The notes: generated by a model not told the origin, from the sequence alone. Counted from the first letter of the stretch, positions 3,001 to 36,425 are shown. The stretch: DNA of 64,000 bases from an uncultured Clostridia bacterium (GCA_944350265.1 CALVOG010000002.1:42567-106566); one strand, 5' to 3'. A program made the numbers and translations.

Positions 3001-6000
3001 CAACTTTCATAATTCCGCCGTTGCTGTTAAGGTCGCCAAGAAGGAAGGTTGCCTCAGTGGAGCCGTTGCCGTCGGTTTTGTCGTTAAGGTTAAAGGTCAC
3101 CGTGACGGTGTTTGCCTCCCAAACTGCATAGAGAGTGACCGTGGCGTCTCGAACGGGGGTGAGGTTTTCAACCGGCTCCTCGTCCTTATAAACCACTCTT
3201 TTAGCAATATCCTCTGCCTTAATTGACTCAGCGGTGCCCCAGCCTCTAAAGGTGTAGCCTGGGTTTACGTATGTGTTCTTTCTAAGTGCCACCTTTCCGC
3301 CGTCATAGGTGAAAGTTTGGTTTTCCATTGTGCCGTCCACTTCCGCATCGTCTGGCGCGTTCTTTGCAAACGCAACTTGGTATTGGTTAGCCGTCCACTT
3401 TGAATACAAGGTGTGATTTTGTGCTGTGCCCACAGTTGTTGCGGACTCAACCTTGTTTTCAAAGGTTCCATCATCCAAATACCAGCCATTGAAGGTGTAA
3501 CCAGTCTTTGTTGGAGTTGGAAGAGTGCCATAGAGTTCGCCATAGCGCACCGTTCTATTTCCAATTGCGTGGTCCGCCCTAATATCGCCAACCTTCTGCA
3601 CGGACACATTCTTAAACTCAAACACTTCGCCAACGGTCCAAGTAGAAGAGTAGAATACGAAATCTGAATACTGCGAATCATTGGATGTAAATCTGATTGA
3701 AACGTTAACCCATTCGTTTGCTTGCTCTATTGTATAATTGATAGGACCACCTTGTTGTTTGCCGATTTTAATTTGGTGTGCGTGGGTAGATTTTATCTCA
3801 GCGGTCCAAACATATTCTTCTCCAACTTCTAAATCGTCAGCAACTAACCACCAGCCGGCAAAAGCATCTCCTAGGCTACTGATTGTGATTTTTGAAACTA
3901 ATTCATTATTAACTTTTGTATGCTCTTCAGTAAAACTAATCTGCTCGGTTGCACTTTCATCATTCCACTTTTGAACCAAATATGGATAAGTAACTATGTT
4001 TTCAGCATCAAAGTTGATAACATAATTCATAGGCTTCCATTGAGCGAAAAGTTCTATGTCATCAGTTATCGTGCCAATATTTTCATAGGAATAATAGGCT
4101 CCTTCGCCATTTACTTGTGTGTTCCAGCCAGCAAAAGCATAACCTTCACGCTCAGCGTATGACAAAGGTTCTGCCACGCCATAGGTTATTTCTTGTTCAA
4201 GCACAACTTCATCGCTCTTGTATATAAAGAAAGCGATTTGTGTGTTAGAGAAACTTGCGCCAATTCCACTAATACTGATTGTTGCGCTTGTTGCGCTTGA
4301 AATTGTTATTTCTTTGGAGGCAAAATAATCATTGTCGCTCGCAAAACTAGCCACAGTTGAGCCAAGAGAAATTTTAAAACTGCAAGCAAACATATTCATT
4401 GCGCCGTCAAGCACAAAGTAACCCACTTTATAAGTCCCAGCCTCAAAAGCGCCAGCAAAGTCAACGAGTCTGATATCACTTGTTGAGGTTCCATCCAGCG
4501 TGAACACATTGGTGTCGGCATCGTAGTTGATTGTCACGCCGTTTTGAGTGGTGTTCCAATCAGCGCTTCGAACGGCGTAGTTAAGCCCTCTGATGCCCGC
4601 GTTGCCTGTGCCGTAGTTTTGGTTATATTGAATGGCGTAACTGTTAACACTCCACTCGGCGGTGAGAGTGATGTTACCAAACAATCTTGCCGTGGAACTT
4701 GCGTTATCCGCGTCGGAAGAAACGGTGACGCCCTGACCTAAATCAGTGTTCGTTTGAAGCCACTTCGAGCCGTCCGCCGTGCCGTCGGAGCAAGTTGCGG
4801 TGAACTTTGTAAGCGTGTGGCCCGTGCGCAAAATATCCGTTTTTGATGGAAGCGCAAAGCCGATTTTTTGGTTAGAAACAACCTCGCCAGAGTAATCCAC
4901 CCTGCCGTATACGTTATAGTAATAGGTTTGCGATTTTCCGCCACCCGCGAACTGACCTTCGCCAGCATTCACGGTTGCGGTGTAAACAATGTAGTTATAA
5001 TTTAAGGTAATATCAAGCGAACCATCGCCAGCAACAACAAGCGAGTTGCCAGTTTTGTTGGTGGAGTAACTTGCGTATTCAAAGCCGTCCACATTCGCCT
5101 CTCCGCCCTCAACAAGCGCCTTTATGTCGTCAATTTTAACCGTGGTGCCGGTGTCGTAAGTGCTAACCTTAAAGGTTGCAAGTTGCGTGTATGAACCAGA
5201 GGTGTTTTGAATGTTAACAATCACATCGAATGGTGTTTTGTCAGCCCTCCACTGTGCAACAAGGGTGACATCGCCGTGCATATTCGCCTTGGTGGTGAAC
5301 GCATTATTTTCTAAAGCGATATTCACGCCGTCTTCAAGCGGATAAGTTTCCGCCCAGTTACCCTCGTCGTCGGTTATGGTGAAGCCGATGAGCGTGTAAC
5401 CCGCGCGCGTGATGTTGGTGCCATTTCGAAGGGTGACAGCGTTTGGATAGGTGTAAGTTTGCGTGCTGTCGCCAGCGCTTGTGAACTTACCTTCGTTTGC
5501 GTTATAGGTTATGGTGTAAGTATTCGCCTTCCACTGTGCAACAAGGGTGACATCGCCGTATTTTCCGCTAATAGGCGCGCCCTTTTTGTAGTCCACACGA
5601 ACGCCGTCCACAGTTTCGCCAGCGGTTGCCCAGTTGTTGGCAGTGCCGTCGCTGGAAATAGTCCAGCCCACAAGCGTGTAGCCCGTGCGCGAAATGTCAG
5701 CGTCGGAGTAAAGATTGAAGGTATCTTCAATGTCATATTTTTTCGTCGCCTCACTTGAAAGCGTGCCGTTGTTTGCCTCATAGGTCACGGTGTATTCAAC
5801 CGGCTCAATCACCGCCTCGATAACAACGTCGCCATAGAACCCTGTGCCAAGCGCGCCAAAGTTAAGCCCTGTTGAACTCCAGTTTGCACTCTCACCTTCT
5901 CCGCTAACAAAGGTCCAGTTTTTAATCGTGTAGCCATAGATTGTGAAGTCGTCGTTATCTAAAAGCGTCAAGTTGGTTTCAACGTTGTATGCATTCACTG

Positions 6001-27380: not shown

Positions 27381-28724
27381 ATGCAAGATATTGAAACACT
27401 TTGGAAACTAATTTTAGAAAAGCTAGAACTTAGGATATCCTCTGTTTCTTTTATGCTTTGGATAAAAACCATCAAACCACTTGAAATTGATGTTAATGGC
27501 AACATTGTTTTGGTTGCTCAATCAGTTACAGCAAAAAATCAAATCCTAAGAAATTTTGTTGATAAGATTGCTGAGTGTGCAAACGAGGTGTCTGGCAAGG
27601 AATACAATATCACCGTGCTAGACCAAAACGAAGAGGCGGAATATCTAAAAAACAACAAAATTAATGAAAAAAACAGCACAAAAACGCAAGAAAAGTCTCC
27701 TTTTAAGGAAAAATTCACTTTTGATAACTTTGTTGTGGGAAAAAGTAACCAATTTGTTTATGCCGCCGCGCGCACGGTTGCGGAGCATCCTGGCAAAAGA
27801 TACAACCCTCTTTTTATATATGGAGGAGTTGGGCTTGGAAAAACACACCTACTACACGCCATTGGAAATTTCATCTATGAGTTTTCCCCAAATTTGAAAA
27901 TTATGTATGTCACTTGCGAACAGTTTACAAACGACTATATTGCCTCTCTATACTCACCAACAAAAAATAAATCTATTATGGAGTTTAGAGGTAAGTATCG
28001 CAATTTGGACGTTTTGATGGTGGACGACATTCAGTTCATCTCACGCGGAAAGGAAACACAGGAGGAATTTTTCCACACCTTCAACGAACTCATTATGAAC
28101 AACAAGCAGATTATCATTTGCTCTGACCGTCCGCCGAAGGATATTGAAACGCTGGAGGATAGGCTCCGCTCAAGGTTTTCTTCTGGGCTTATCCACGATA
28201 TTCAAGCGCCAGATATTGAAACGCGTATTGCCATTCTTCACAAAAAAAGTCAACTGGAAAAATACTACGCTGAGGACGACGCCATTAACTATATCGCCGA
28301 GCGCGTTGATTCCAACATAAGAGATTTGGAAGGAAAATTGAGCGAGGTTTATTTTCTTGCCACTCTTAACGGCAAAAAGGTGGCAACTATAACCGAAGCC
28401 AAAGAGGTTTTCTTAAACGAGCCTAAGGAGGATATCAAAAACGACCTCACAACTGACAAGATAATAAGTGTTGTTTGTAACTATTTCAACATTGACGAAA
28501 AGGATATCATCGGCAAGAAGAAAAATAAGGAGATTGTCACTCCGCGTATGATTGCAATATATTTAATCAGCGAACTTCTCAATCTTCCGCTTGTCAATAT
28601 CGGCAAAATTTTTGGCGGGCGCGACCACACCACAATTATGCACTCGCGCGACAAGATTGATGGCGAACTTAAAACCAACAAAAAAACCGAAACAATCATC
28701 AAAGAGATAAAGGCGCTTTTATAG
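27381..28724 (+). CDS. dnaA: Chromosomal replication initiator DnaA
   Basis: AAA+ motifs GGVGLGKTHLLHA and DVLMVDDIQF. C-terminal DNA-binding region IAIYLISELLNLPLVNIGKIFGGRDHTTIMHSRDKI. RBS AAAGGGG. Confidence 0.95.
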   Translation: MQDIETLWKLILEKLELRISSVSFMLWIKTIKPLEIDVNGNIVLVAQSVTAKNQILRNFVDKIAECANEVSGKEYNITVLDQNEEAEYLKNNKINEKNSTKTQEKSPFKEKFTFDNFVVGKSNQFVYAAARTVAEHPGKRYNPLFIYGGVGLGKTHLLHAIGNFIYEFSPNLKIMYVTCEQFTNDYIASLYSPTKNKSIMEFRGKYRNLDVLMVDDIQFISRGKETQEEFFHTFNELIMNNKQIIICSDRPPKDIETLEDRLRSRFSSGLIHDIQAPDIETRIAILHKKSQLEKYYAEDDAINYIAERVDSNIRDLEGKLSEVYFLATLNGKKVATITEAKEVFLNEPKEDIKNDLTTDKIISVVCNYFNIDEKDIIGKKKNKEIVTPRMIAIYLISELLNLPLVNIGKIFGGRDHTTIMHSRDKIDGELKTNKKTETIIKEIKALL

Positions 28725-28792
28725 TAAGCGCTTTTTTGTGTCGTTGACACATTTTTTTTCTTTTTATATCCTTAAAAGGGAACTTTCCACCT

Positions 28793-28951
28793 TAATCCAC
28801 AGGATATTCACAGCGTATCCACAGTAATTTGTGAGGATATCCACAAAATATCCACAATGTGTGAACACAAAATATTGTATAAGTGGGCGGGATTTATTGT
28901 TTTTAAGGCGGTATATGTTGATAAGAGGGGAAAGTTATCCACATATCCACA
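28793..28951 (+). promoter_or_regulatory. oriC DnaA-box cluster in the dnaA-dnaN spacer
   Basis: Co-oriented boxes: TAATCCACA 28793-28801, GTATCCACA 28815-28823, ATATCCACA 28837-28845, ATATCCACA 28848-28856, perfect TTATCCACA 28935-28943, ATATCCACA 28943-28951. A 2-mismatch box lies at 28804-28812. Confidence 0.8.
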
Positions 28952-29005
28952 GCCATAATTAATATAATTATTACGCTAAAAATAAATTAATTTATTAAAT
29001 TACTT
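28952..29005. other. Candidate DNA-unwinding element (AT-rich stretch next to the last DnaA box)
   Basis: Almost pure A/T sequence, ATAATTAATATAATTATTACGCTAAAAATAAATTAATTTATTAAATTAC, immediately after the box cluster and followed by a GC clamp, GCGCGCGGGCGG. Confidence 0.5.
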
Positions 29006-29061
29006 GCGCGCGGGCGGAATGTGTGATATAATAAAGTATACTTATATTAAAGGAGCAGAAA

Positions 29062-30162
29062 ATGTTAGTAAGTTGTCACGGAGTGGAACTTTCGGATGCC
29101 TTTTTAAGCGTTAGTAAGGCAATTAGCAATAAAGTTACCAATCCAATTTTAGAGGGAATTAAAATAACTGCTGAGGATGACACGTTGACGCTCAGTGCCA
29201 CCGACAGCGACCTTTCGATTGAAAGGAAGATTAAAGCCAACATTAAAGATGAGGGCGAGGCGGTTGTGCCAGGAAAGTTCATAACCGAGTTCATTAAGAA
29301 GTTGACGAATGAGATGATTGAACTTGAACTTAACGATAAGAACCAAATGCTAATTAAGTATGACGACAGCCATAGTATAATTCAGTGCTATAATGTTTTA
29401 GAGTATCCATCATTTAAGAAGTTGGAGTCGGCAGAGTTTTTCTCAATCAGTAAGAAGGATTTTAAAACCATAATCAATAAAACGAGATTTTCGGTGGCGA
29501 TTGACGATTCTCGTCCAATTTTGAAAGGCGTGCTTTTTGATATTGACAGGAACGAACTCAACGCCGTTGCGCTTGATGGATATCGCCTTGCCAAGGTGAA
29601 GAAGAATATTAAATCCGATTTAAGAATGAATATCGTTATCCCTGCAAGAAGTTTGGACGAAATTTCTCGCCTTTTGGATGACAGTGAGGATTATATTAAC
29701 GTCTATGTGGATAAAAACACGTTGATGGTGGATTTCGGTGAAACAAAACTGACAACTCGCCTTATTGAAGGTGATTTTGTCAATTATAAACAGATAATCT
29801 CGGCAAACTATGAAACAATTTGTATTATCAATAAGTCACAATTTGAGGATGCGTTAGAGAGAGCCTCTCTGCTTTCGAAAGTTGGGCAGGGAAACTGCGT
29901 GAAATTTGAGGTGAAAGAGAAAAACCTTTGCATAACTTCAAATTCCGAAATAGGAAACGTGAAAGAAAATGTGCCAACCAACACCAGTGGAAAGGATTTG
30001 ACGATTGCCTTTAACGCAAGGTATTTCATTGAATCGCTTCGCGCTAACCAGGAAGAGTTTGTTAAAATATGCTTTAATTCTCCAGCAAATCCTTGCGTGA
30101 TTGTGCCGGTTGAAGGCGACGAATTTTTATATCTCATCTTGCCGGTTAGAATGATTGGGTAA
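29062..30162 (+). CDS. dnaN: DNA polymerase III beta subunit (sliding clamp)
   Basis: 366 aa, positioned after dnaA. Typical segments are PILEGIKITAEDDTLTLSATDSDLSIE, AVALDGYRLA and a C-terminal YLILPVRM. RBS AAAGGAG. Confidence 0.92.
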   Translation: MLVSCHGVELSDAFLSVSKAISNKVTNPILEGIKITAEDDTLTLSATDSDLSIERKIKANIKDEGEAVVPGKFITEFIKKLTNEMIELELNDKNQMLIKYDDSHSIIQCYNVLEYPSFKKLESAEFFSISKKDFKTIINKTRFSVAIDDSRPILKGVLFDIDRNELNAVALDGYRLAKVKKNIKSDLRMNIVIPARSLDEISRLLDDSEDYINVYVDKNTLMVDFGETKLTTRLIEGDFVNYKQIISANYETICIINKSQFEDALERASLLSKVGQGNCVKFEVKEKNLCITSNSEIGNVKENVPTNTSGKDLTIAFNARYFIESLRANQEEFVKICFNSPANPCVIVPVEGDEFLYLILPVRMIG

Positions 30163-30181
30163 AAATTTTATAGTTTTAAGG

Positions 30182-30209
30182 GCGTTAACAAATTTGTTAG
30201 CGCTTTTTT
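30182..30209 (+). terminator. Terminator after dnaN
   Basis: Stem GCGTTAACA/TGTTAGCGC (one mismatch) followed by TTTTTT. Confidence 0.6.
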
Positions 30210-30257
30210 ATTAATTTTAAAACGTGGCAGTGACTCGACATTCTTTTTAATTTTTCA

Positions 30258-30305
30258 CGCGCTATTTTTATTTTTCCCGCGCTATTTTTATTTTTCCCGC
30301 GTTAT
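30258..30305 (+). repeat. 2.4 tandem copies of a 20-bp unit (CGCGCTATTTTTATTTTTCC) just upstream of the rpmH promoter
   Basis: Identical units at 30258-30277 and 30278-30297, plus a partial third copy. Confidence 0.8.
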
Positions 30306-30309
30306 AGAG

Positions 30310-30338
30310 TTGACAAATTGAGTAAAATTTATTATAAT
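30310..30338 (+). promoter_or_regulatory. Consensus sigma-A promoter of the rpmH operon
   Basis: TTGACA (30310-30315), a 17-nt spacer, then TATAAT (30333-30338). Confidence 0.7.
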
Positions 30339-30388
30339 AACTTCCATAGCGTTTCCTTGCTAGAAAATTTACACATAAGGAGTTAGAA

Positions 30389-30520
30389 ATGAAAAGAACA
30401 TACCAACCTAAGAAAAGACAAAAGAATAAGGTTCACGGCTTCCGCGAAAGAATGAGAACAAAGGGCGGAAGGAATGTTTTGAAGCGTCGTAGAAATCGCG
30501 GTAGAAAGAAGATTGCCTAA
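30389..30520 (+). CDS. rpmH: 50S ribosomal protein L34
   Basis: 43-aa ORF below the track cutoff: [52 protein letters not shown]. Its stop overlaps the rnpA ATG (TAATG). Confidence 0.93.
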
Positions 30521-30849
30521 TGCACAGCCTAAAAAAGAATAAGGATTTTAATTTCATTTACAAAAAGGGGGAAAGAGTCTCAACCGACAACTTCACTCTT
30601 TTTGTTGTGAAAAGTAAGTTCTTCGATTATCGAATTGGTTTTTCGATTAATAAGAAATTAGGAAAGGCAAACAAGCGGAATCTTTTGAAAAGACGGCTGA
30701 AAGAGATAACAAGAAGAGAGATTAAAATTTTGCCACACCGAAACTACGTGGTGCTTGCGCGAAACGAGGCGATAAACCTAGATTTTGTTGCGCTCAAAGA
30801 AGAGATTAAAAGGCTTTTTACGAAGTATGAAAAAAAGAAAAATATATAA
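30520..30849 (+). CDS. rnpA: Ribonuclease P protein component
   Basis: 109-aa basic protein directly after rpmH, with the motif KKLGKANKRNLLKRRLKE. Confidence 0.88.
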   Translation: MHSLKKNKDFNFIYKKGERVSTDNFTLFVVKSKFFDYRIGFSINKKLGKANKRNLLKRRLKEITRREIKILPHRNYVVLARNEAINLDFVALKEEIKRLFTKYEKKKNI

Positions 30850-31090
30850 GACGATATTTCTTCTGCCCGTCTTTTTTTATAAGAAAGTGCTTTCGCCAAT
30901 TTTGCCTCACAGTTGCCTTTTTTCGCCCACTTGCTCGAATTATTTTATCGGCTGTGTGGACGAATTTGGCGTTTTTAAGGGCGCTTTTCTTGGCTTTAAA
31001 AGGCTTTTTAGATGTGTTCCGTGGCAAAAAAAGACGGGTTATGACCCCGTGCCGATAAATATAAAAGGAGATAACATATGGATACTTTGA
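30827..31090 (+). CDS. yidD: Membrane protein insertion efficiency factor YidD
   Basis: Contains YKKVLSPILPHSCLFSPTCSNYFIGCVDEFGVFKGAFLGFKRLFRC. The ATG at 30827 is preferred over the track TTG at 30785. Confidence 0.85.
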   Translation: MKKRKIYKTIFLLPVFFYKKVLSPILPHSCLFSPTCSNYFIGCVDEFGVFKGAFLGFKRLFRCVPWQKKTGYDPVPINIKGDNIWIL

Positions 31091-32403
31091 TGACCATTTT
31101 AACAGAACCTCACGGAATGTGGGAAAGTATCTTAGGCGCGTTTAAGGGTGCAATGGGCTCCTATATTTTGGCGGTTATTTTGCTTGCTGTTATTGTGAGA
31201 GTGGTGTTTGCGGTGGTTGACGTTGTAAACAAAAGGTTCACCACCAAAAATATGCAAATAAACCAAAAAATGCAACCAGAACTTGAGGCTATACAAAAAA
31301 AATATGGGCACGACAAGGTGCTTTTGCAGAAAAAACAGCAGGAAATTTATAAGAAATATCAATTCAATATGGTGTCGTCGTGCTTGCCGATGCTTGTTGC
31401 AATGATTTTGCAACTCGTTGTGTTTTTGACCTTGTGGACGGGGCTTCAAAATGTGTCTTATTATAACATTGCCAAGAGTTACGAGAACACAAAAACCGTC
31501 TACTATAACGTTTTACTTTTAAATGAAAATGCTGAACTTAAAACCAAAGTTGAAGAGATTTTGTTGAGCGATAAAGAGGTGAACTATTCCAATTTCTCGG
31601 TGGAAATTGACCTTGAAAACCTTAATATGTCCGTTCAATTTAAGGACGAAAACGGAACAGAAATTTATAATGAAAACATAACTATCATCCCAACCAGTGG
31701 CAAAGAGGAGGGTGATAAAGGCGTTTCCAACAAAGAGGTTTATGAGGTTATTGAGCGCTATGCAATGGATAAGACTATTGTTTCGCCACTAAGTGCCGAA
31801 GAAGGAAAGTTAAGTGAATATAACCTTGTTATAAAGAACCTCGCGGAAGAAGTTACGGCAGATTTTTACACCGAAAATTTGGAGAGTTTTTTGTGGATAA
31901 AAAACATCTACAAGGCGGAATCTCCAGCAACCACACCAGTGTTCGACAAGAGCGAAATTGTAAGTTATCTTCAAAGATATTACACTGATGCCGAAAAAGA
32001 GGCTGAAGAAATCCACGACTATGAGGGACAAATTTTTGACTGTGTGGTTGAAGGGTTAAACCGCCGAGATTTGGGTGCTAATGGCTACTATATTTTGGTT
32101 ATTCTTGCCGTTGCCACAAGTTTCCTTTCGATATTTATCAACAACAAACTGACCAAAAAAACCACAGGCACACAGTCGGGTGGAAAGATGATGTATTTCA
32201 TTATGCCACTCATTTTGGGGCTTTTCACTTTGATGTATACCAGCCTTTTTGCCATCTACATCATTGTTGGACAGATTGTTATGATTGCCCTTTCCCCTCT
32301 CACGAACCTCATTGTGAAAAAGTGGATTGAGGCAAGCGACAGAAAAAAAGAGAAGAAAAAGCAAGAAGTCATCGACGTTGATTATAGGCGAAAGGATATG
32401 TAA
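31078..32403 (+). CDS. yidC: YidC/Oxa1-family membrane insertase with an expanded extracytoplasmic loop
   Basis: TM1 carries the conserved Arg (LAVIVRVVF). The C1 hairpin reads MQPELEAIQKKYG...QQEIYKKYQFN. TM2 starts CLPMLVAMILQ, followed by the FLWIKNI motif and TM3 YYILVILAV. The C-terminal tail is basic. RBS AAAGGAG. Confidence 0.85.
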   Translation: MDTLMTILTEPHGMWESILGAFKGAMGSYILAVILLAVIVRVVFAVVDVVNKRFTTKNMQINQKMQPELEAIQKKYGHDKVLLQKKQQEIYKKYQFNMVSSCLPMLVAMILQLVVFLTLWTGLQNVSYYNIAKSYENTKTVYYNVLLLNENAELKTKVEEILLSDKEVNYSNFSVEIDLENLNMSVQFKDENGTEIYNENITIIPTSGKEEGDKGVSNKEVYEVIERYAMDKTIVSPLSAEEGKLSEYNLVIKNLAEEVTADFYTENLESFLWIKNIYKAESPATTPVFDKSEIVSYLQRYYTDAEKEAEEIHDYEGQIFDCVVEGLNRRDLGANGYYILVILAVATSFLSIFINNKLTKKTTGTQSGGKMMYFIMPLILGLFTLMYTSLFAIYIIVGQIVMIALSPLTNLIVKKWIEASDRKKEKKKQEVIDVDYRRKDM

Positions 32404-32412
32404 GACTATAGA

Positions 32413-32448
32413 GAATGAGGCGTTTTGAAAATTTACGCCTCATTTTTT
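32413..32448 (+). terminator. Terminator after yidC
   Basis: 9-bp stem AATGAGGCG/CGCCTCATT followed by TTTTTT. Confidence 0.8.
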
Positions 32449-32504
32449 CATTTTGTATTGACAATTTGCCATTTGTCGTTTAGAATAAGATAAAAGAGGT
32501 GGAT

Positions 32505-34085
32505 ATGCTTAAAGATGTGAGAGAATATATCGAAAAAAATTTAACTTACGGCAAAAATGATGATGTTGTGAAGTATCTTTTTAAGTCACTTTCTTTAACG
32601 CCACACGTTGATGTTATGACGCCAATTTATGATGTTTGCAAGGGGCTTGGAATTAAACTCGTTGCCACCGACTTTAAGCGAAAGGGCGGAGATGTAGCCC
32701 AATATATCGAGCGGGGAGGGCGAAGTCCGTATATTTGCGTTGACTATGCCACAAACTGCAGGCGCGTTAGATTTAACATTGCCACAATGGTTTACTGCGC
32801 GCTTCATTCCAATTTCAGCGACCGTTTTGTTGTGACAAAAACGCCAGAAAGCCAAAATCTTCATCGAGCAAAGAAGTTTGCGGCAAGCCTTTTGATGCCA
32901 ACACAAACACTCAAAAAGGAGATTTTTCGAAAGGATATTTTTGGCGAATATATCTATCTTGTGAAGTATAACGGCGAGTGGGTGTTGCCGTTTAAGACCA
33001 TTCATTGCATAGCCGAGCGTTTTGGCGTGGAATTTCCGCAGTGTGCAAAGCGAATTTTCTATTCTAACATCGCCAAAATTCGCCGTATTAACACGCGTGA
33101 CGAACTCAACCGTAGGCTTAAAACCGCCGAGGCGAGCGAAGCAATGCGCAGGCGCTGGATATATGGTTGCGAAAAAAGAGATTATCTTCTTCGCACCTAC
33201 CTTATAAACAATTTGCATTTTCCAAAAATAACCAAAGTCAACGACCAAATTTGCGAAAAATTGAGATGCGAGATTGTTAAAAACGATTCGCTTATCGAAG
33301 GCGTTTTAAGTTCCGCCAAAAAAATTGAAAGTTTTTTAAATAGGTATAAAAAGGGCGAGGTGAATGAACTTTACAAATTGCCTATCGCCGAACGCATTAT
33401 GATTGGGCATTATGAAACCATTCGCCACTTGGAGGAGATTCCTTTCAATAAGCGCTTTTTCAACGAACTGCACTATCGCCTTTTCAAATACGCCGTTGTC
33501 ACCGATGAAGAAAGAGAGTGGCTTGCTGACCCAAAACACTGCGCGCGCGGAGAAAATGAATATTTCATCGACTTTGTGCCAGGGCAGTATCGACAAACGC
33601 AAAACATTATTAACGGCGCCAAGTTTATCACCGATTCGGTGCCCGATATTTACACCACTATGAACAACCTCTATTACGACACCGAATATCTCTTGCAAAA
33701 CAAAGATAAATACACAAATGTGGAATATATTGGCAGGGTGAATAATTTGGTGAACAAACTTTGCGTTTGCAACCCGTTTGACGATGGGAATGGGCGTGTT
33801 TCGCGCCTATTTATGAACTACCTCTTCTATCAAAAGGAGCTTCCACCTGTTTATATCGACGCTTCCAAGCGAAAGGAGGAATATATAAGCGCACTTGACG
33901 AACTTTCCGACCAATGCAGACACAAACTTTACGAACAAATTGACTATTCGCGCCTAAATGGGATTGTGATGGAGTGTATGCTGGAAACAGAGGGTATCTT
34001 TTTCCAACCTGAGGCAATGCTTTCAAAACCGCAAGAATATATCAACAAAGAACTCCGCGCCAAGACCGACAAGGAAAAGGAATAA
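32505..34085 (+). CDS. Fusion protein of an ImmA/IrrE (M78)-like domain lacking HExxH and a Fic/DOC domain whose catalytic His is replaced by Asn
   Basis: The N-terminal RFNIATMVYCALH...KKFAASLLMP resembles the M78 pattern RF-x-x-AHELGH...AN-x-FA-x-x-LLMP. The central NDSLIEGV resembles the Fic_N region. The C-terminal NPFDDGNGRVSR (33771-33806) compares with the Fic motif HPFxxGNGRxxR. The ATG at 32505 follows AGAGG. Confidence 0.65.
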   Translation: MLKDVREYIEKNLTYGKNDDVVKYLFKSLSLTPHVDVMTPIYDVCKGLGIKLVATDFKRKGGDVAQYIERGGRSPYICVDYATNCRRVRFNIATMVYCALHSNFSDRFVVTKTPESQNLHRAKKFAASLLMPTQTLKKEIFRKDIFGEYIYLVKYNGEWVLPFKTIHCIAERFGVEFPQCAKRIFYSNIAKIRRINTRDELNRRLKTAEASEAMRRRWIYGCEKRDYLLRTYLINNLHFPKITKVNDQICEKLRCEIVKNDSLIEGVLSSAKKIESFLNRYKKGEVNELYKLPIAERIMIGHYETIRHLEEIPFNKRFFNELHYRLFKYAVVTDEEREWLADPKHCARGENEYFIDFVPGQYRQTQNIINGAKFITDSVPDIYTTMNNLYYDTEYLLQNKDKYTNVEYIGRVNNLVNKLCVCNPFDDGNGRVSRLFMNYLFYQKELPPVYIDASKRKEEYISALDELSDQCRHKLYEQIDYSRLNGIVMECMLETEGIFFQPEAMLSKPQEYINKELRAKTDKEKE

Positions 34086-34204
34086 CCGCTGTCACTTTTT
34101 AAGATTTCGCGTTTTAAGATTTCTTGCATTTACTAAGAAAAGTCACAATATCATTCGCCCGCACAAGTCTAATTTTCCTCTAAAAAAACGCTTAACACAC
34201 TACA

Positions 34205-34537
34205 ACGCTTATTCCGTTAGGACTATTTAAAAACGCCTATCATACCACGCCGTTCATTCCGCCAGGACTATTGGTTTATTTGTCATTCTGAGCGAAGCGA
34301 AGAATCTCGTCGTAGGTGACGCTATCACTTTCTAATGTGTTGCGTGTTAAGCTTTCTTGCAAATACAAAGCTTCTCACATCACCACCAGCGAATGTCTAA
34401 TCTATCCTCTTAAAAGAAATTCATTTAATGCGCAGTAACGCTTATTCCGCTAGGACTATTGGTCCATTTGTCATTCTGAGCCAACGGCGAAGAATCTCGT
34501 CGTAGCCACCACCCGCGAACGTCGAAATCATCCTCTT
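34205..34537 (+). repeat. Patchwork of direct repeats filling the Fic-acnX intergenic region
   Basis: The ACGCTTATTCCGYTAGGACTATT-like segment occurs at 34205, 34251 and 34438. TTTGTCATTCTGAGC...GAAGAATCTCGTCGTAG occurs at 34279-34316 and 34468-34506. CACCA(C)C..GCGAA.GTC.AA.C.ATCCTCTTA tails lie at ~34381-34411 and ~34507-34537. GTTAAG.TTTCTTGCA..TAC occurs at ~34111 and ~34345. Confidence 0.75.
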
Positions 34538-34710
34538 ATTGTTATTAAAAAACGGCTAAACTCAAAACACCTCACACATCCAAGCGCGCTTGGTCATCCT
34601 CAAAATATTTATGAGATTTCCATATCAACAACTCAAATTTCTTAAACATTCTTTTAAAATCGTTTTGTTTTTATAAGGGAAATTGATATAATGTTTTAAA
34701 GGAGGGGGAA

Positions 34711-35985
34711 ATGAAATTAACAGAGGAAGAACAGAAAATTCTTTCTGGGAGCGAGGGTGAAACCAAAGCGAAAATAATGAGAACGTTGGTGGAGTTTGGT
34801 GACCTTTTTGGCGCCACCGAGTTTGTGCCTGTTTCCACTTGCGGACACCTTGTCACCTCATTTGGTATTGGGCTTTTGAAGCCGGTTTATCGCATTATGG
34901 ATGAAATTATAGGCGCGGGGCTGAAAACGCCTTACCCATTCACGGTTGACCCGCGCCCGATTGACTATAAAAACGTCAAATGTGGACTTTTAAACAAACT
35001 TATCTTCTCAAAAGTTATGTATTCAAAGCAAAAGGAATATGAAGCGCAACTTTCGAAAATAGGGCTGAAAAACAAAAACGCGTTCACTTGCGCGTGCTAC
35101 TTAGAAGAGGTTGGAAACACACCGAAGTATGGCGACATTCTTTCGTGGGCGGAAAGTTCTGCTGTGGTGTTTGCAAACTCTGTGCTTGGCGCGAGGTGCA
35201 ACCGCAACAGCGGTATGCTTGACATCTTCGGCGCGCTCATCGGCAAAGTGCCAAAGTTCGGGCTTTTAACCGACGAGGGCAGAAAAGCGGATTTTGTGGT
35301 GGAAGTGAGAACGTCAAAACTGCCAGAGGCGCAAATTTTGGGTTCGGCGATAGGAATGCGCGTTATGGAAAAAGTGCCATACGTTGTGGGCCTTGACAAG
35401 TTTTTGGGCAACGAATTAAATGACAACACGATTGCCTATCTTAAAGACTTCGGCGCAGCAACGGCTTCAAACGGAGCAGTGGGGCTTTACCATATCGAAA
35501 ACCTCACCCCAGAGGCTAAGAAATTTAAGACCAAACTTTTGAAAGAAAATGTGGAGCGTTACATAATCGACGACGAAGAACTTGAGCGAGTTTATCAAAG
35601 TTATCCTATTATGTGGAAAAAGAAGGACCAAAAGCCGTCGCTTTGCTTTATCGGTTGTCCGCACCTATCTTTTTCACAACTAGTGAAATGGACTGAAAAC
35701 CTAGAAACAGCACTCCGCGAAAGTGGAAGAAAAAAGGTGAAAGTGCGCACAATAATGACCTCTGCACCTGACGTTGTTGAAAGGTTTAAAAAGACGGAAA
35801 GTTACAAAAAACTCATAGGCTACGGCGTTAAAATTTCCTCAATTTGCCCGCTTATGTTCACAAATAATCCAATCGCAGGTGGCAAGCCAATCATCACCAA
35901 CAGCAACAAACTTCGAACCTATTCCAAGGCGAGATATTTCAAAGATGAGGATATTTTAAAAATCATTTCGGGGGTGAAAGAATGA
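34711..35985 (+). CDS. Aconitase X catalytic (large) subunit, DUF521 family
   Basis: The N-terminus MKLTEEEQKILSGSEGETKAKIMRTLVEFGDLFGATEFVPVSTCGH matches the recalled DUF521 consensus. 424 aa. RBS AAAGGAGGGGG. Confidence 0.8.
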   Translation: MKLTEEEQKILSGSEGETKAKIMRTLVEFGDLFGATEFVPVSTCGHLVTSFGIGLLKPVYRIMDEIIGAGLKTPYPFTVDPRPIDYKNVKCGLLNKLIFSKVMYSKQKEYEAQLSKIGLKNKNAFTCACYLEEVGNTPKYGDILSWAESSAVVFANSVLGARCNRNSGMLDIFGALIGKVPKFGLLTDEGRKADFVVEVRTSKLPEAQILGSAIGMRVMEKVPYVVGLDKFLGNELNDNTIAYLKDFGAATASNGAVGLYHIENLTPEAKKFKTKLLKENVERYIIDDEELERVYQSYPIMWKKKDQKPSLCFIGCPHLSFSQLVKWTENLETALRESGRKKVKVRTIMTSAPDVVERFKKTESYKKLIGYGVKISSICPLMFTNNPIAGGKPIITNSNKLRTYSKARYFKDEDILKIISGVKE

Positions 35986-36425
35986 AAAAAATCTTTAAAG
36001 GCAGAGTGATTTGCGCGGGCGAGTATGAGGGCGAATGTGTGGTGTCAAGGCAAGGCTTAAACACCCTTGCAACCTTTCAAAAGTCCGCACTTATGAACAA
36101 GAAAAAGGTGATAGGTTCCGACCAAAACAACAAGGATGTAGATGGCAAAAATCTCACAGGCGTTGCGCTTATTTTACCGCAAACAATCGGCTCGACAACG
36201 GGCGGGTTAGTGATTCAAACGATATGCCAAATGAAAATTAATCCGTCGGCGTTGCTGTTTAGCGAGGAAATTGATTCGCTCGCCGCAAGCGGTGTGATAT
36301 TGGCCAAAAATTGGGAAAATTCAAACATAATCGCCATCGACAAACTTGGAAATGACATTCTTTCGGCGGTTAAAACGGGCGACAAAATAAGGGTGTCAAA
36401 AGACGGCATGGTGGAAATTTTATAA
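35982..36425 (+). CDS. Aconitase X swivel (small) subunit, DUF126 family
   Basis: Contains KGRVICAGEYEGECVVS...LILPQTIGSTTGGLVIQ. A 4-nt overlap (ATGA) with the large subunit suggests translational coupling. Confidence 0.78.
   Translation: MKKIFKGRVICAGEYEGECVVSRQGLNTLATFQKSALMNKKKVIGSDQNNKDVDGKNLTGVALILPQTIGSTTGGLVIQTICQMKINPSALLFSEEIDSLAASGVILAKNWENSNIIAIDKLGNDILSAVKTGDKIRVSKDGMVEIL

Follow-up and report, generated by a model that had tools for sequence, protein, structure and literature searches.

The stretch of DNA considered here, 64,000 nucleotides from an uncultured Clostridia bacterium (hereafter the window, from whose first letter all positions are counted), carries on its plus strand an open reading frame (ORF; 32505-34085) of 526 amino acids that joins an ImmA/IrrE (Peptidase_M78)-like domain to a Fic domain. 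The ORF starts at an ATG with AAGAGGTG directly 5′ of it and, as a sequence-only reading of the locus had described, lies between the intrinsic terminator of yidC and a repeat-rich spacer of 625 bp. The terminator (32410-32448, plus strand) is a 14-bp hairpin with an 11-nucleotide loop followed by a U-run; its RNA fold has a free energy of -18 kcal/mol (z -4.67), and none of 200 shuffled sequences was as stable. This hairpin sets the fusion gene apart from the yidC transcript. It is followed by a sigma-70-type promoter-like site, TTGACA-17-TAGAAT (32458-32486, plus strand), which matches the consensus at 11 of 12 positions in a scan whose total of sites in the region was not above chance, so that only its position and quality favor it; it is probably the promoter of the fusion gene itself. 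The gene order dnaA-dnaN-rpmH-rnpA-yidC-[fusion gene]-AcnX is common to the window and all close strains.

Homologues of the fusion protein were sought among 5.8 billion proteins and, in a second search, among 1.84 billion representatives. The first search returned only 8 full-length homologue clusters (90% identity) at 49-98% identity, and the second returned only three proteins below an E value of 1e-30. All members of this small family come from ENA, Logan, or NCBI assemblies. JGI metagenome contigs scanned with the family's N-terminal alignment contained no relative, IMG/VR scanned with the degenerate N-terminal profile yielded canonical HExxH fusions only and no family member, and genome contigs scanned with the full-length alignment yielded a mass of generic Fic motif matches and no family member. 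The DnaN protein of the window shares a 90% cluster with that of Candidatus Caccovivens faecavium, one of the uncultured Clostridia, and the neighboring genes place the fusion gene near Candidatus Caccovivens. The family as a whole belongs to uncultured gut Clostridia.

In Pfam, the N-terminal domain (32637-33056, plus strand; amino acids 45-184) matches Peptidase_M78 (PF06114) with 23.5 bits against a cut-off of 22, while amino acids 356-440 match Fic (PF02661) with 27.9 bits against a cut-off of 24. Because both scores are barely over threshold, independent support was sought for the two calls. For the N-terminal domain, hhalign aligned the HExxH-less N termini with the N termini of HELCH-bearing relatives of about 450 amino acids at 99.8% probability (E 3.7e-28), and these HELCH-bearing N termini in turn match CapP (7e-14), PprI (1e-11), and IrrE (9e-11). 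The AlphaFold2 model of the 526-amino-acid fusion, built on a 35-sequence alignment, has a predicted local distance difference test score (pLDDT) of 87.5 and a predicted template modeling score of 0.88, and a separate model of residues 1-205 has a pLDDT of 86.8. When the N-terminal domain model was searched with Foldseek, only Mycobacterium tuberculosis PrpR and IrrE/PprI were found below E 0.01. Together with the FICD profile comparison described below for the C-terminal half, these results bear out both domain assignments of the sequence-only reading.

The family shares with ImmA, IrrE, PprI, and CapP (COG2856) the fold and the flanks R-F-x-x-A ... A-x-x-F-A-x-x-L-L-M-P, retained here as R-F-x-x-A and A-K-K-F-A-A-x-L-L-M-P. 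What it has lost is the zinc site. According to the alignment and hhalign, the HExxH position reads T94-M95-V96-Y97-C98 (32784-32798, plus strand) and the position of the third-ligand Glu is L119 (32859-32861, plus strand), such that the catalytic and zinc residues H, E, H, and E of M78 proteases are replaced by T94, M95, C98, and L119. The degenerate site is flanked by R89-F90 and H120-RAKKFAASLLMP-132. The loss is not peculiar to the window: ATM[VIL]YC occupies the HExxH position in the representatives of all 8 clusters (with Met changed to Leu in P0007), and the column of the third ligand, a Glu about 25 residues downstream within E-x-x-A-[DN]-x-F-A, holds L or F across the family. Residues C98, H101, and H120 were considered as a replacement metal site and rejected as unsupported, H120 being outside the ligand column and H101 not being kept in P0005 and P0008, while the distant relative P0034 has Lys at that site.

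We conclude that the N-terminal domain is best described as a genuine ImmA/IrrE homologue that is predicted to be unable to bind zinc in the usual way, and since all of its zinc and catalytic residues are replaced, proteolysis by this domain is not expected. Nei-Gojobori ratios of nonsynonymous to synonymous substitution (dN/dS), computed for pairs with unsaturated synonymous divergence (dS), are 0.03-0.22 in every domain, including the M78-like one, which argues that the dead protease domain is maintained by purifying selection. In our interpretation, the M78-like half is a conserved pseudo-protease whose loss of HExxH is old and family-wide.

The C-terminal half has a different history. Its Fic core (33570-33914, plus strand; amino acids 356-470, with the Pfam match at 356-440) is part of a FICD-like class II Fic domain that, with its own predicted inhibitory helix, extends over amino acids ~247-470. 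A profile built from the last 300 residues of the family proteins and of their relatives aligns with FICD over about 220 positions with an E value of 7e-27. In a Foldseek search with the model of the whole fusion, the best PDB matches were FICD (E 5e-7) and the class II Fic protein BT_2513 (3cuc; TM score 0.72). The Fic fold is shared with FICD/HYPE, BT_2513, and the Clostridium difficile Fic protein 4x2c. The likeness to FICD includes the HPFxDGNGRxxR motif, carried by all relatives in the family, and a putative inhibitory helix placed N-terminally and in cis. The motif of this helix, D261-S-L-I-E265-G266 (33285-33302, plus strand), had been described before as resembling the Fic_N inhibitory-helix region, with its Glu retained and its Ser/Thr shifted, and the comparison agrees: E265-G266 aligns with the Glu-Gly of FICD TVAIEG, E265 falls in the column of FICD Glu234 in the profile alignment, and E265 is invariant in 35 divergent sequences. 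Unlike in other class II Fic proteins, the Ser of the inhibitory motif stands at -3, and the canonical S/T position at -4 is occupied by Asp or Glu. Other differences are that FICD has a tetratricopeptide repeat domain and a membrane anchor, whereas the fusion has neither and carries the M78-like domain at its N terminus instead, and that, relative to canonical fusions, the family has some 25 additional residues inserted directly ahead of the flap (amino acids ~333-358). On the strength of these alignments and models, we assign the C-terminal part to the FICD-like Fic domains of class II, with a putative inhibitory helix in cis.

A canonical HPF(D/E)DGNGRxxR motif together with an in-cis Glu matching FICD Glu234 predicts an auto-inhibited AMPylase, and by homology to FICD the family protein may possibly also be a deAMPylase. 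In FICD, one and the same Glu gates AMPylation and deAMPylation; the Fic His acts as the indispensable general base in AMPylation, and deAMPylation, too, is abolished when this His is mutated (PMC8373988).

The protein encoded in the window departs from its family at exactly this residue. Its Fic signature reads N423-PFDDGNGRVSR-434 (33771-33806, plus strand), with AAC at codon 423. A phmmer search against PDB sequences aligned N423-PFDDGNGR with the HPFxDGNGR of FICD and placed the Asn on the catalytic His, which upholds the earlier statement that the Fic His is Asn in the window. P424, F425, D427, G428, N429, G430, R431, and R434 are invariant across the family, so that the G-N-G-R anion nest and the second Arg of the motif are intact. 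The codon (33771-33773) is a single C-to-A step from CAC, which is found in the four loci of the common allele (P0021) whose DNA was read. Of the 13 alleles in the window's 90% cluster that cover the motif, 12 have the Fic His and only the window's own (P0020) has Asn, and HPF[D/E]DGNGR is present in the representatives of all 8 clusters (P0001-P0008). As the His is kept in relatives that are without HExxH, the losses at the M78 and Fic sites are not conserved together. By this check, which the sequence-only reading had itself proposed, its central idea of a polypeptide with both active sites altered fails. H423N is a private point variant of a single strain and does not characterize the family.

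Between the window allele and the common allele, 37 of 1,581 nucleotides differ; 24 of the differences are synonymous and 13 are nonsynonymous, the latter altering 11 codons. In a comparison of 12 full-length alleles, H423N and G445E were the only substitutions private to the window allele. G445E (33837-33839, plus strand) affects the conserved K-G-L-P-P stretch that follows the Fic motif, at a position that is G, D, or N across the family; it is 22 residues away from H423N, and both private substitutions fall within the Fic core. When the window is compared with the common allele at locus L006, dS is 0.17 in the Fic core (33570-33914) and about 0.06 in the other domains, and a recombination tract could be the source of this roughly threefold higher value.

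A change of a single base raises the question of whether H423N could be an artefact of sequencing, of assembly, or of a minority variant, the real gene having His. The allele is present on 2 contigs, and a Logan assembly of run ERR4096320 agrees with the window's record at all 1,581 nucleotides, but the two records may rest on the same reads. Apart from this agreement between two assemblies, the 36 other differences from the common allele indicate a distinct strain and not a noisy copy, and the second private change, G445E, stands only 22 residues off. We therefore regard an artefact as very unlikely.

If the Asn is real, the protein should be catalytically dead for both AMP transfer and AMP removal, by analogy with FICD, and the window copy is probably a null allele of an otherwise active enzyme, in effect a strain-level knockout. 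We know of no Fic reaction that proceeds without the His (Doc, AnkX, and VopS). It had been proposed that the fusion could be a Fic protein with noncanonical chemistry, which would require Asn423 to support such a reaction. That the remainder of the motif, PFDDGNGRVSR, and the nucleotide-binding residues are intact could be cited in favor of this idea, but the rest of the motif is canonical, Asn cannot serve as a general base, the variant is not conserved, and the His was required for every reaction studied in FICD (PMC8373988). We find the proposal hardly credible and do not retain it.

ImmA-type proteases cleave an Xre-type partner, as in the pairs ImmR/ImmA, DdrO/IrrE, and CapH/CapP. There is no Xre gene next to the fusion ORF in the window, and tblastn with five Xre partners of relatives gave no match in its 64 kb; likewise, no small partner (antitoxin) ORF was found flanking the fusion gene, and a search for a partner ORF in the 625-bp spacer gave only ORFs of 25-40 amino acids inside strain-variable repeats. 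The earlier remark that the gene has no Xre or antitoxin neighbor is correct in this respect. The absence extends to the closest members of the family, as no Xre gene lies upstream of the window allele, of its close relative P0021, or of P0002-P0005, and the members at 58-73% identity have unrelated neighborhoods that are also without a helix-turn-helix (HTH) gene.

Other members and relatives do have a partner. In the ~50%-identical sister clade (P0006, P0007, and P0008), the fusion gene is preceded by an HTH_3/HTH_19 gene of 95-96 amino acids, the end of which runs 1-8 nucleotides into it. The distant relative P0034, which is without HExxH and keeps the Fic His, has an 86-amino-acid homologue of the sister-clade HTH protein 2 nucleotides upstream, and the canonical HELCH fusion P0043 has a 110-amino-acid HTH_3 gene 6 nucleotides upstream. 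On IMG/VR viral contigs, all eight canonical fusions have an overlapping upstream ORF of 105-130 amino acids that is Xre-like. These viral-contig modules (L113-L120, with genes at ~3900-5350) have the makeup Xre plus M78(HELCH)-Fic(HPF/HAFxDGNGR), and their Xre ORFs share a conserved C-terminal tail, FARxFxxLxxxDQxEIxNLIEFK, that could serve for docking or as a site of cleavage. At the P0007 locus (L015), a gene with a KilA-N domain (343-1149), some 1.3 kb upstream of the Xre gene, hints at a mobile-element context for that copy.

The recurrence of an upstream Xre gene in the sister clade, in P0034, in P0043, and in the viral fusions indicates that the ancestral unit was an Xre plus M78-Fic operon. 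The window's subclade would accordingly be a secondary orphan, in which the protease chemistry appears to have been lost first and the Xre gene afterward. The sister clade and the canonical fusions preserve the ancestral gene order, in which Xre directly precedes the M78 gene, whereas the fusion studied here differs from ImmA/IrrE in being without the zinc residues, in being joined to an effector domain, and in having no Xre in this genome region.

The loss of Xre offers another way to account for the Asn allele, namely, that once an antitoxin-like Xre was gone, a harmful Fic activity was knocked out in this strain as an adaptation. Fic domains are common toxins, the Fic core matches the PADLOC models PDC-S04 (1e-17) and SoFic (3e-9), and it is within this core that the two private substitutions are found. 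All other Xre-less members, however, including 12 alleles of the same species, keep the His, and with the in-cis inhibitory Glu intact the enzyme should already be restrained. Adaptive inactivation is thus an unlikely explanation in our view.

Two known systems help in placing the M78-like half. The first is PrpR/RamB of M. tuberculosis (6cyy), which the N-terminal domain resembles most closely in structure (Foldseek E 2e-4, identity ~16%). The IrrE-like domain of PrpR has lost HExxH and senses a ligand in a nonproteolytic role (PMC6765138). In contrast to the fusion, PrpR is a transcription factor with an HTH, a GAF-like domain, a 4Fe4S cluster, and a coenzyme A ligand, none of which is evident here. 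The second is RosmerTA, an example of the toxin-antitoxin and anti-phage modules in which ImmA-type domains serve as hubs (PMC10440598). Like RosmerTA, the system described here combines an Xre HTH, an M78 domain, and an effector of toxic type in one small module; in PADLOC models, the sister-clade Xre matches the HTH regions of RmrA, and the M78 part weakly matches RmrA (1e-6, partial, in the M78 region only) and capP (1e-3, likewise weak). In RosmerTA, however, RmrA is an HTH fused to M78 and the toxin RmrT is separate, whereas in the present system the effector is joined to M78 and the HTH is encoded by a separate gene or absent; moreover, the protease of this family is dead. Class I Fic toxin-antitoxin pairs such as VbhT/VbhA also differ, as their inhibitory Glu is provided in trans by a small antitoxin, while the motif here is in cis.

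Our results lead us to favor, as reasonably likely, the explanation that the window encodes an orphan auto-inhibited Fic enzyme with a noncatalytic M78 regulatory domain, present here as a catalytically null allele and descended from an Xre plus M78-Fic module. The ancestor would have consisted of a small Xre-type HTH gene overlapping or abutting a gene that fused an ImmA/IrrE zinc protease to a FICD-like nucleotidyltransferase. The protease domain would then have lost all four zinc and catalytic residues while remaining under purifying selection. With its protease chemistry gone, this domain has most plausibly been retained for binding or regulation, and, with PrpR as a solved precedent, its most likely role is that of a noncatalytic regulatory or partner-binding domain packed against the Fic domain. 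The window's subclade presumably went on to lose Xre, leaving a stand-alone gene between the yidC and AcnX genes that probably has its own promoter, and in this strain a C-to-A change turned the catalytic His into Asn, which should abolish both the transfer and the removal of AMP.

Several observations weigh against this explanation. When a profile of only the degenerate N-terminal domains was searched against the PDB, no M78 structure was significant, and for this reason the M78 link needed the transitive route through the HELCH-bearing relatives; the link consists of a borderline Pfam score, a transitive profile match, and a fold similarity with TM scores of ~0.47-0.50. The role given to the pseudo-M78 domain is putative. 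Furthermore, the window allele has an intact ORF, a dN/dS of 0.10 relative to the His allele, and no sign of decay, so that the null allele may be recent or the function of the protein may be independent of catalysis. Finally, distant relatives with a conserved Gln at the position of the Fic His show that noncatalytic Fic forms can be maintained.

These relatives (P0035, P0047, P0057, and P0059; 547-572 amino acids) are without HExxH and have the Fic motifs QPFRDGNKR, QPFQDGNKR, QLFNDGNSR, and QPFNGGNGR, and all four keep the inhibitory-helix Glu. P0035 (loci L108 and L109) has a nicotinamide mononucleotide transporter gene upstream and no Xre gene. The four lineages appear to be truly doubly degenerate, and for them the idea of a pseudoenzyme scaffold is reasonable.

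For the window, the same idea would mean that the protein is a maintained double pseudoenzyme (a scaffold, a sensor, or a substrate trap) and that the Asn allele is functional and not null. The intact ORF and low dN/dS fit such a protein, as does the pseudo-M78 half, which indicates that the family tolerates and conserves dead catalytic domains, and Gln at the Fic His of the distant relatives (over ~25% identity), with their inhibitory-helix Glu retained, is a parallel case. A trap is also conceivable in biochemical terms, since FICD H363A stays bound to its AMPylated substrate in a long-lived complex (PMC8373988). The distribution of the variant speaks otherwise: among the 13 alleles of the species-level cluster only one has Asn, the 7 other clusters lack it entirely, and the remaining Fic motif is fully canonical and conserved, as would be expected for an active enzyme. 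We judge a maintained double pseudoenzyme to be improbable at this locus. There is an equally small chance that the family and its more distant Gln-bearing relatives document the stepwise conversion of an Xre-controlled module of zinc protease plus AMPylase into a fully noncatalytic protein. The Asn allele would then be a working double pseudoenzyme able to bind an (AMPylated) target in its Fic pocket, comparable to FICD H363A with its trapped substrate, and a partner in its dead protease groove. The earlier suggestion of a pseudoenzyme with both sites altered in one polypeptide is therefore partly sustained, in that the pseudo-protease is conserved, while the dead Fic site is a private point variant. 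A dead Fic site may here be neutral, adaptive, or compatible with a noncatalytic role.

With regard to the surroundings of the fusion gene, it lies about 3.8 kb downstream of dnaA and directly after the block dnaA-dnaN-rpmH-rnpA-yidD-like-yidC (27381-32403), and the large and swivel subunits of aconitase X (AcnX) are the products of the next two genes (34711-36425). An Rfam search around the fusion gene gave no match. The spacer in between (34086-34710) is noncoding, contains direct repeats, is a hot spot of insertions and deletions between strains, and is probably not part of the M78-Fic system. Its repeat element of about 125 nucleotides has copies at ~34229-34315 and ~34413-34540, with the core GTCATTCTGAGC..GCGAAGAATCTCGTCGTAG, and these are the only two copies within the 64-kb window. 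The second copy is missing in strain L006 (7266-7775), and in L007 (7213-7893) it is replaced by a different insert carrying the reverse complement of the core. The repeat looks like a small strain-variable element able to flip its orientation, similar to miniature inverted-repeat transposable elements or repetitive extragenic palindromic sequences.

Our findings suggest that the double-dead pattern in this window combines one old loss at the level of the family with one private point mutation, and annotation of the locus as a new pseudoenzyme class is not advisable. The family is a variant of Xre/ImmA modules and of class II Fic enzymes. The more valuable lead is the uncharacterized Xre plus M78-Fic module with its graded catalytic losses, which is apparently recurrent as a two-gene unit in genomes and viral contigs and for which a literature search on M78-Fic fusions and on the module itself found no relevant paper. 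Its members form a natural dissection series, from fusions with both domains alive, through those with a dead protease and a live Fic domain with or without Xre, to distant lineages in which both are dead. Such a series could reveal roles of ImmA-like domains beyond the cutting of repressors and show how Fic enzymes are gated by fused sensor domains.

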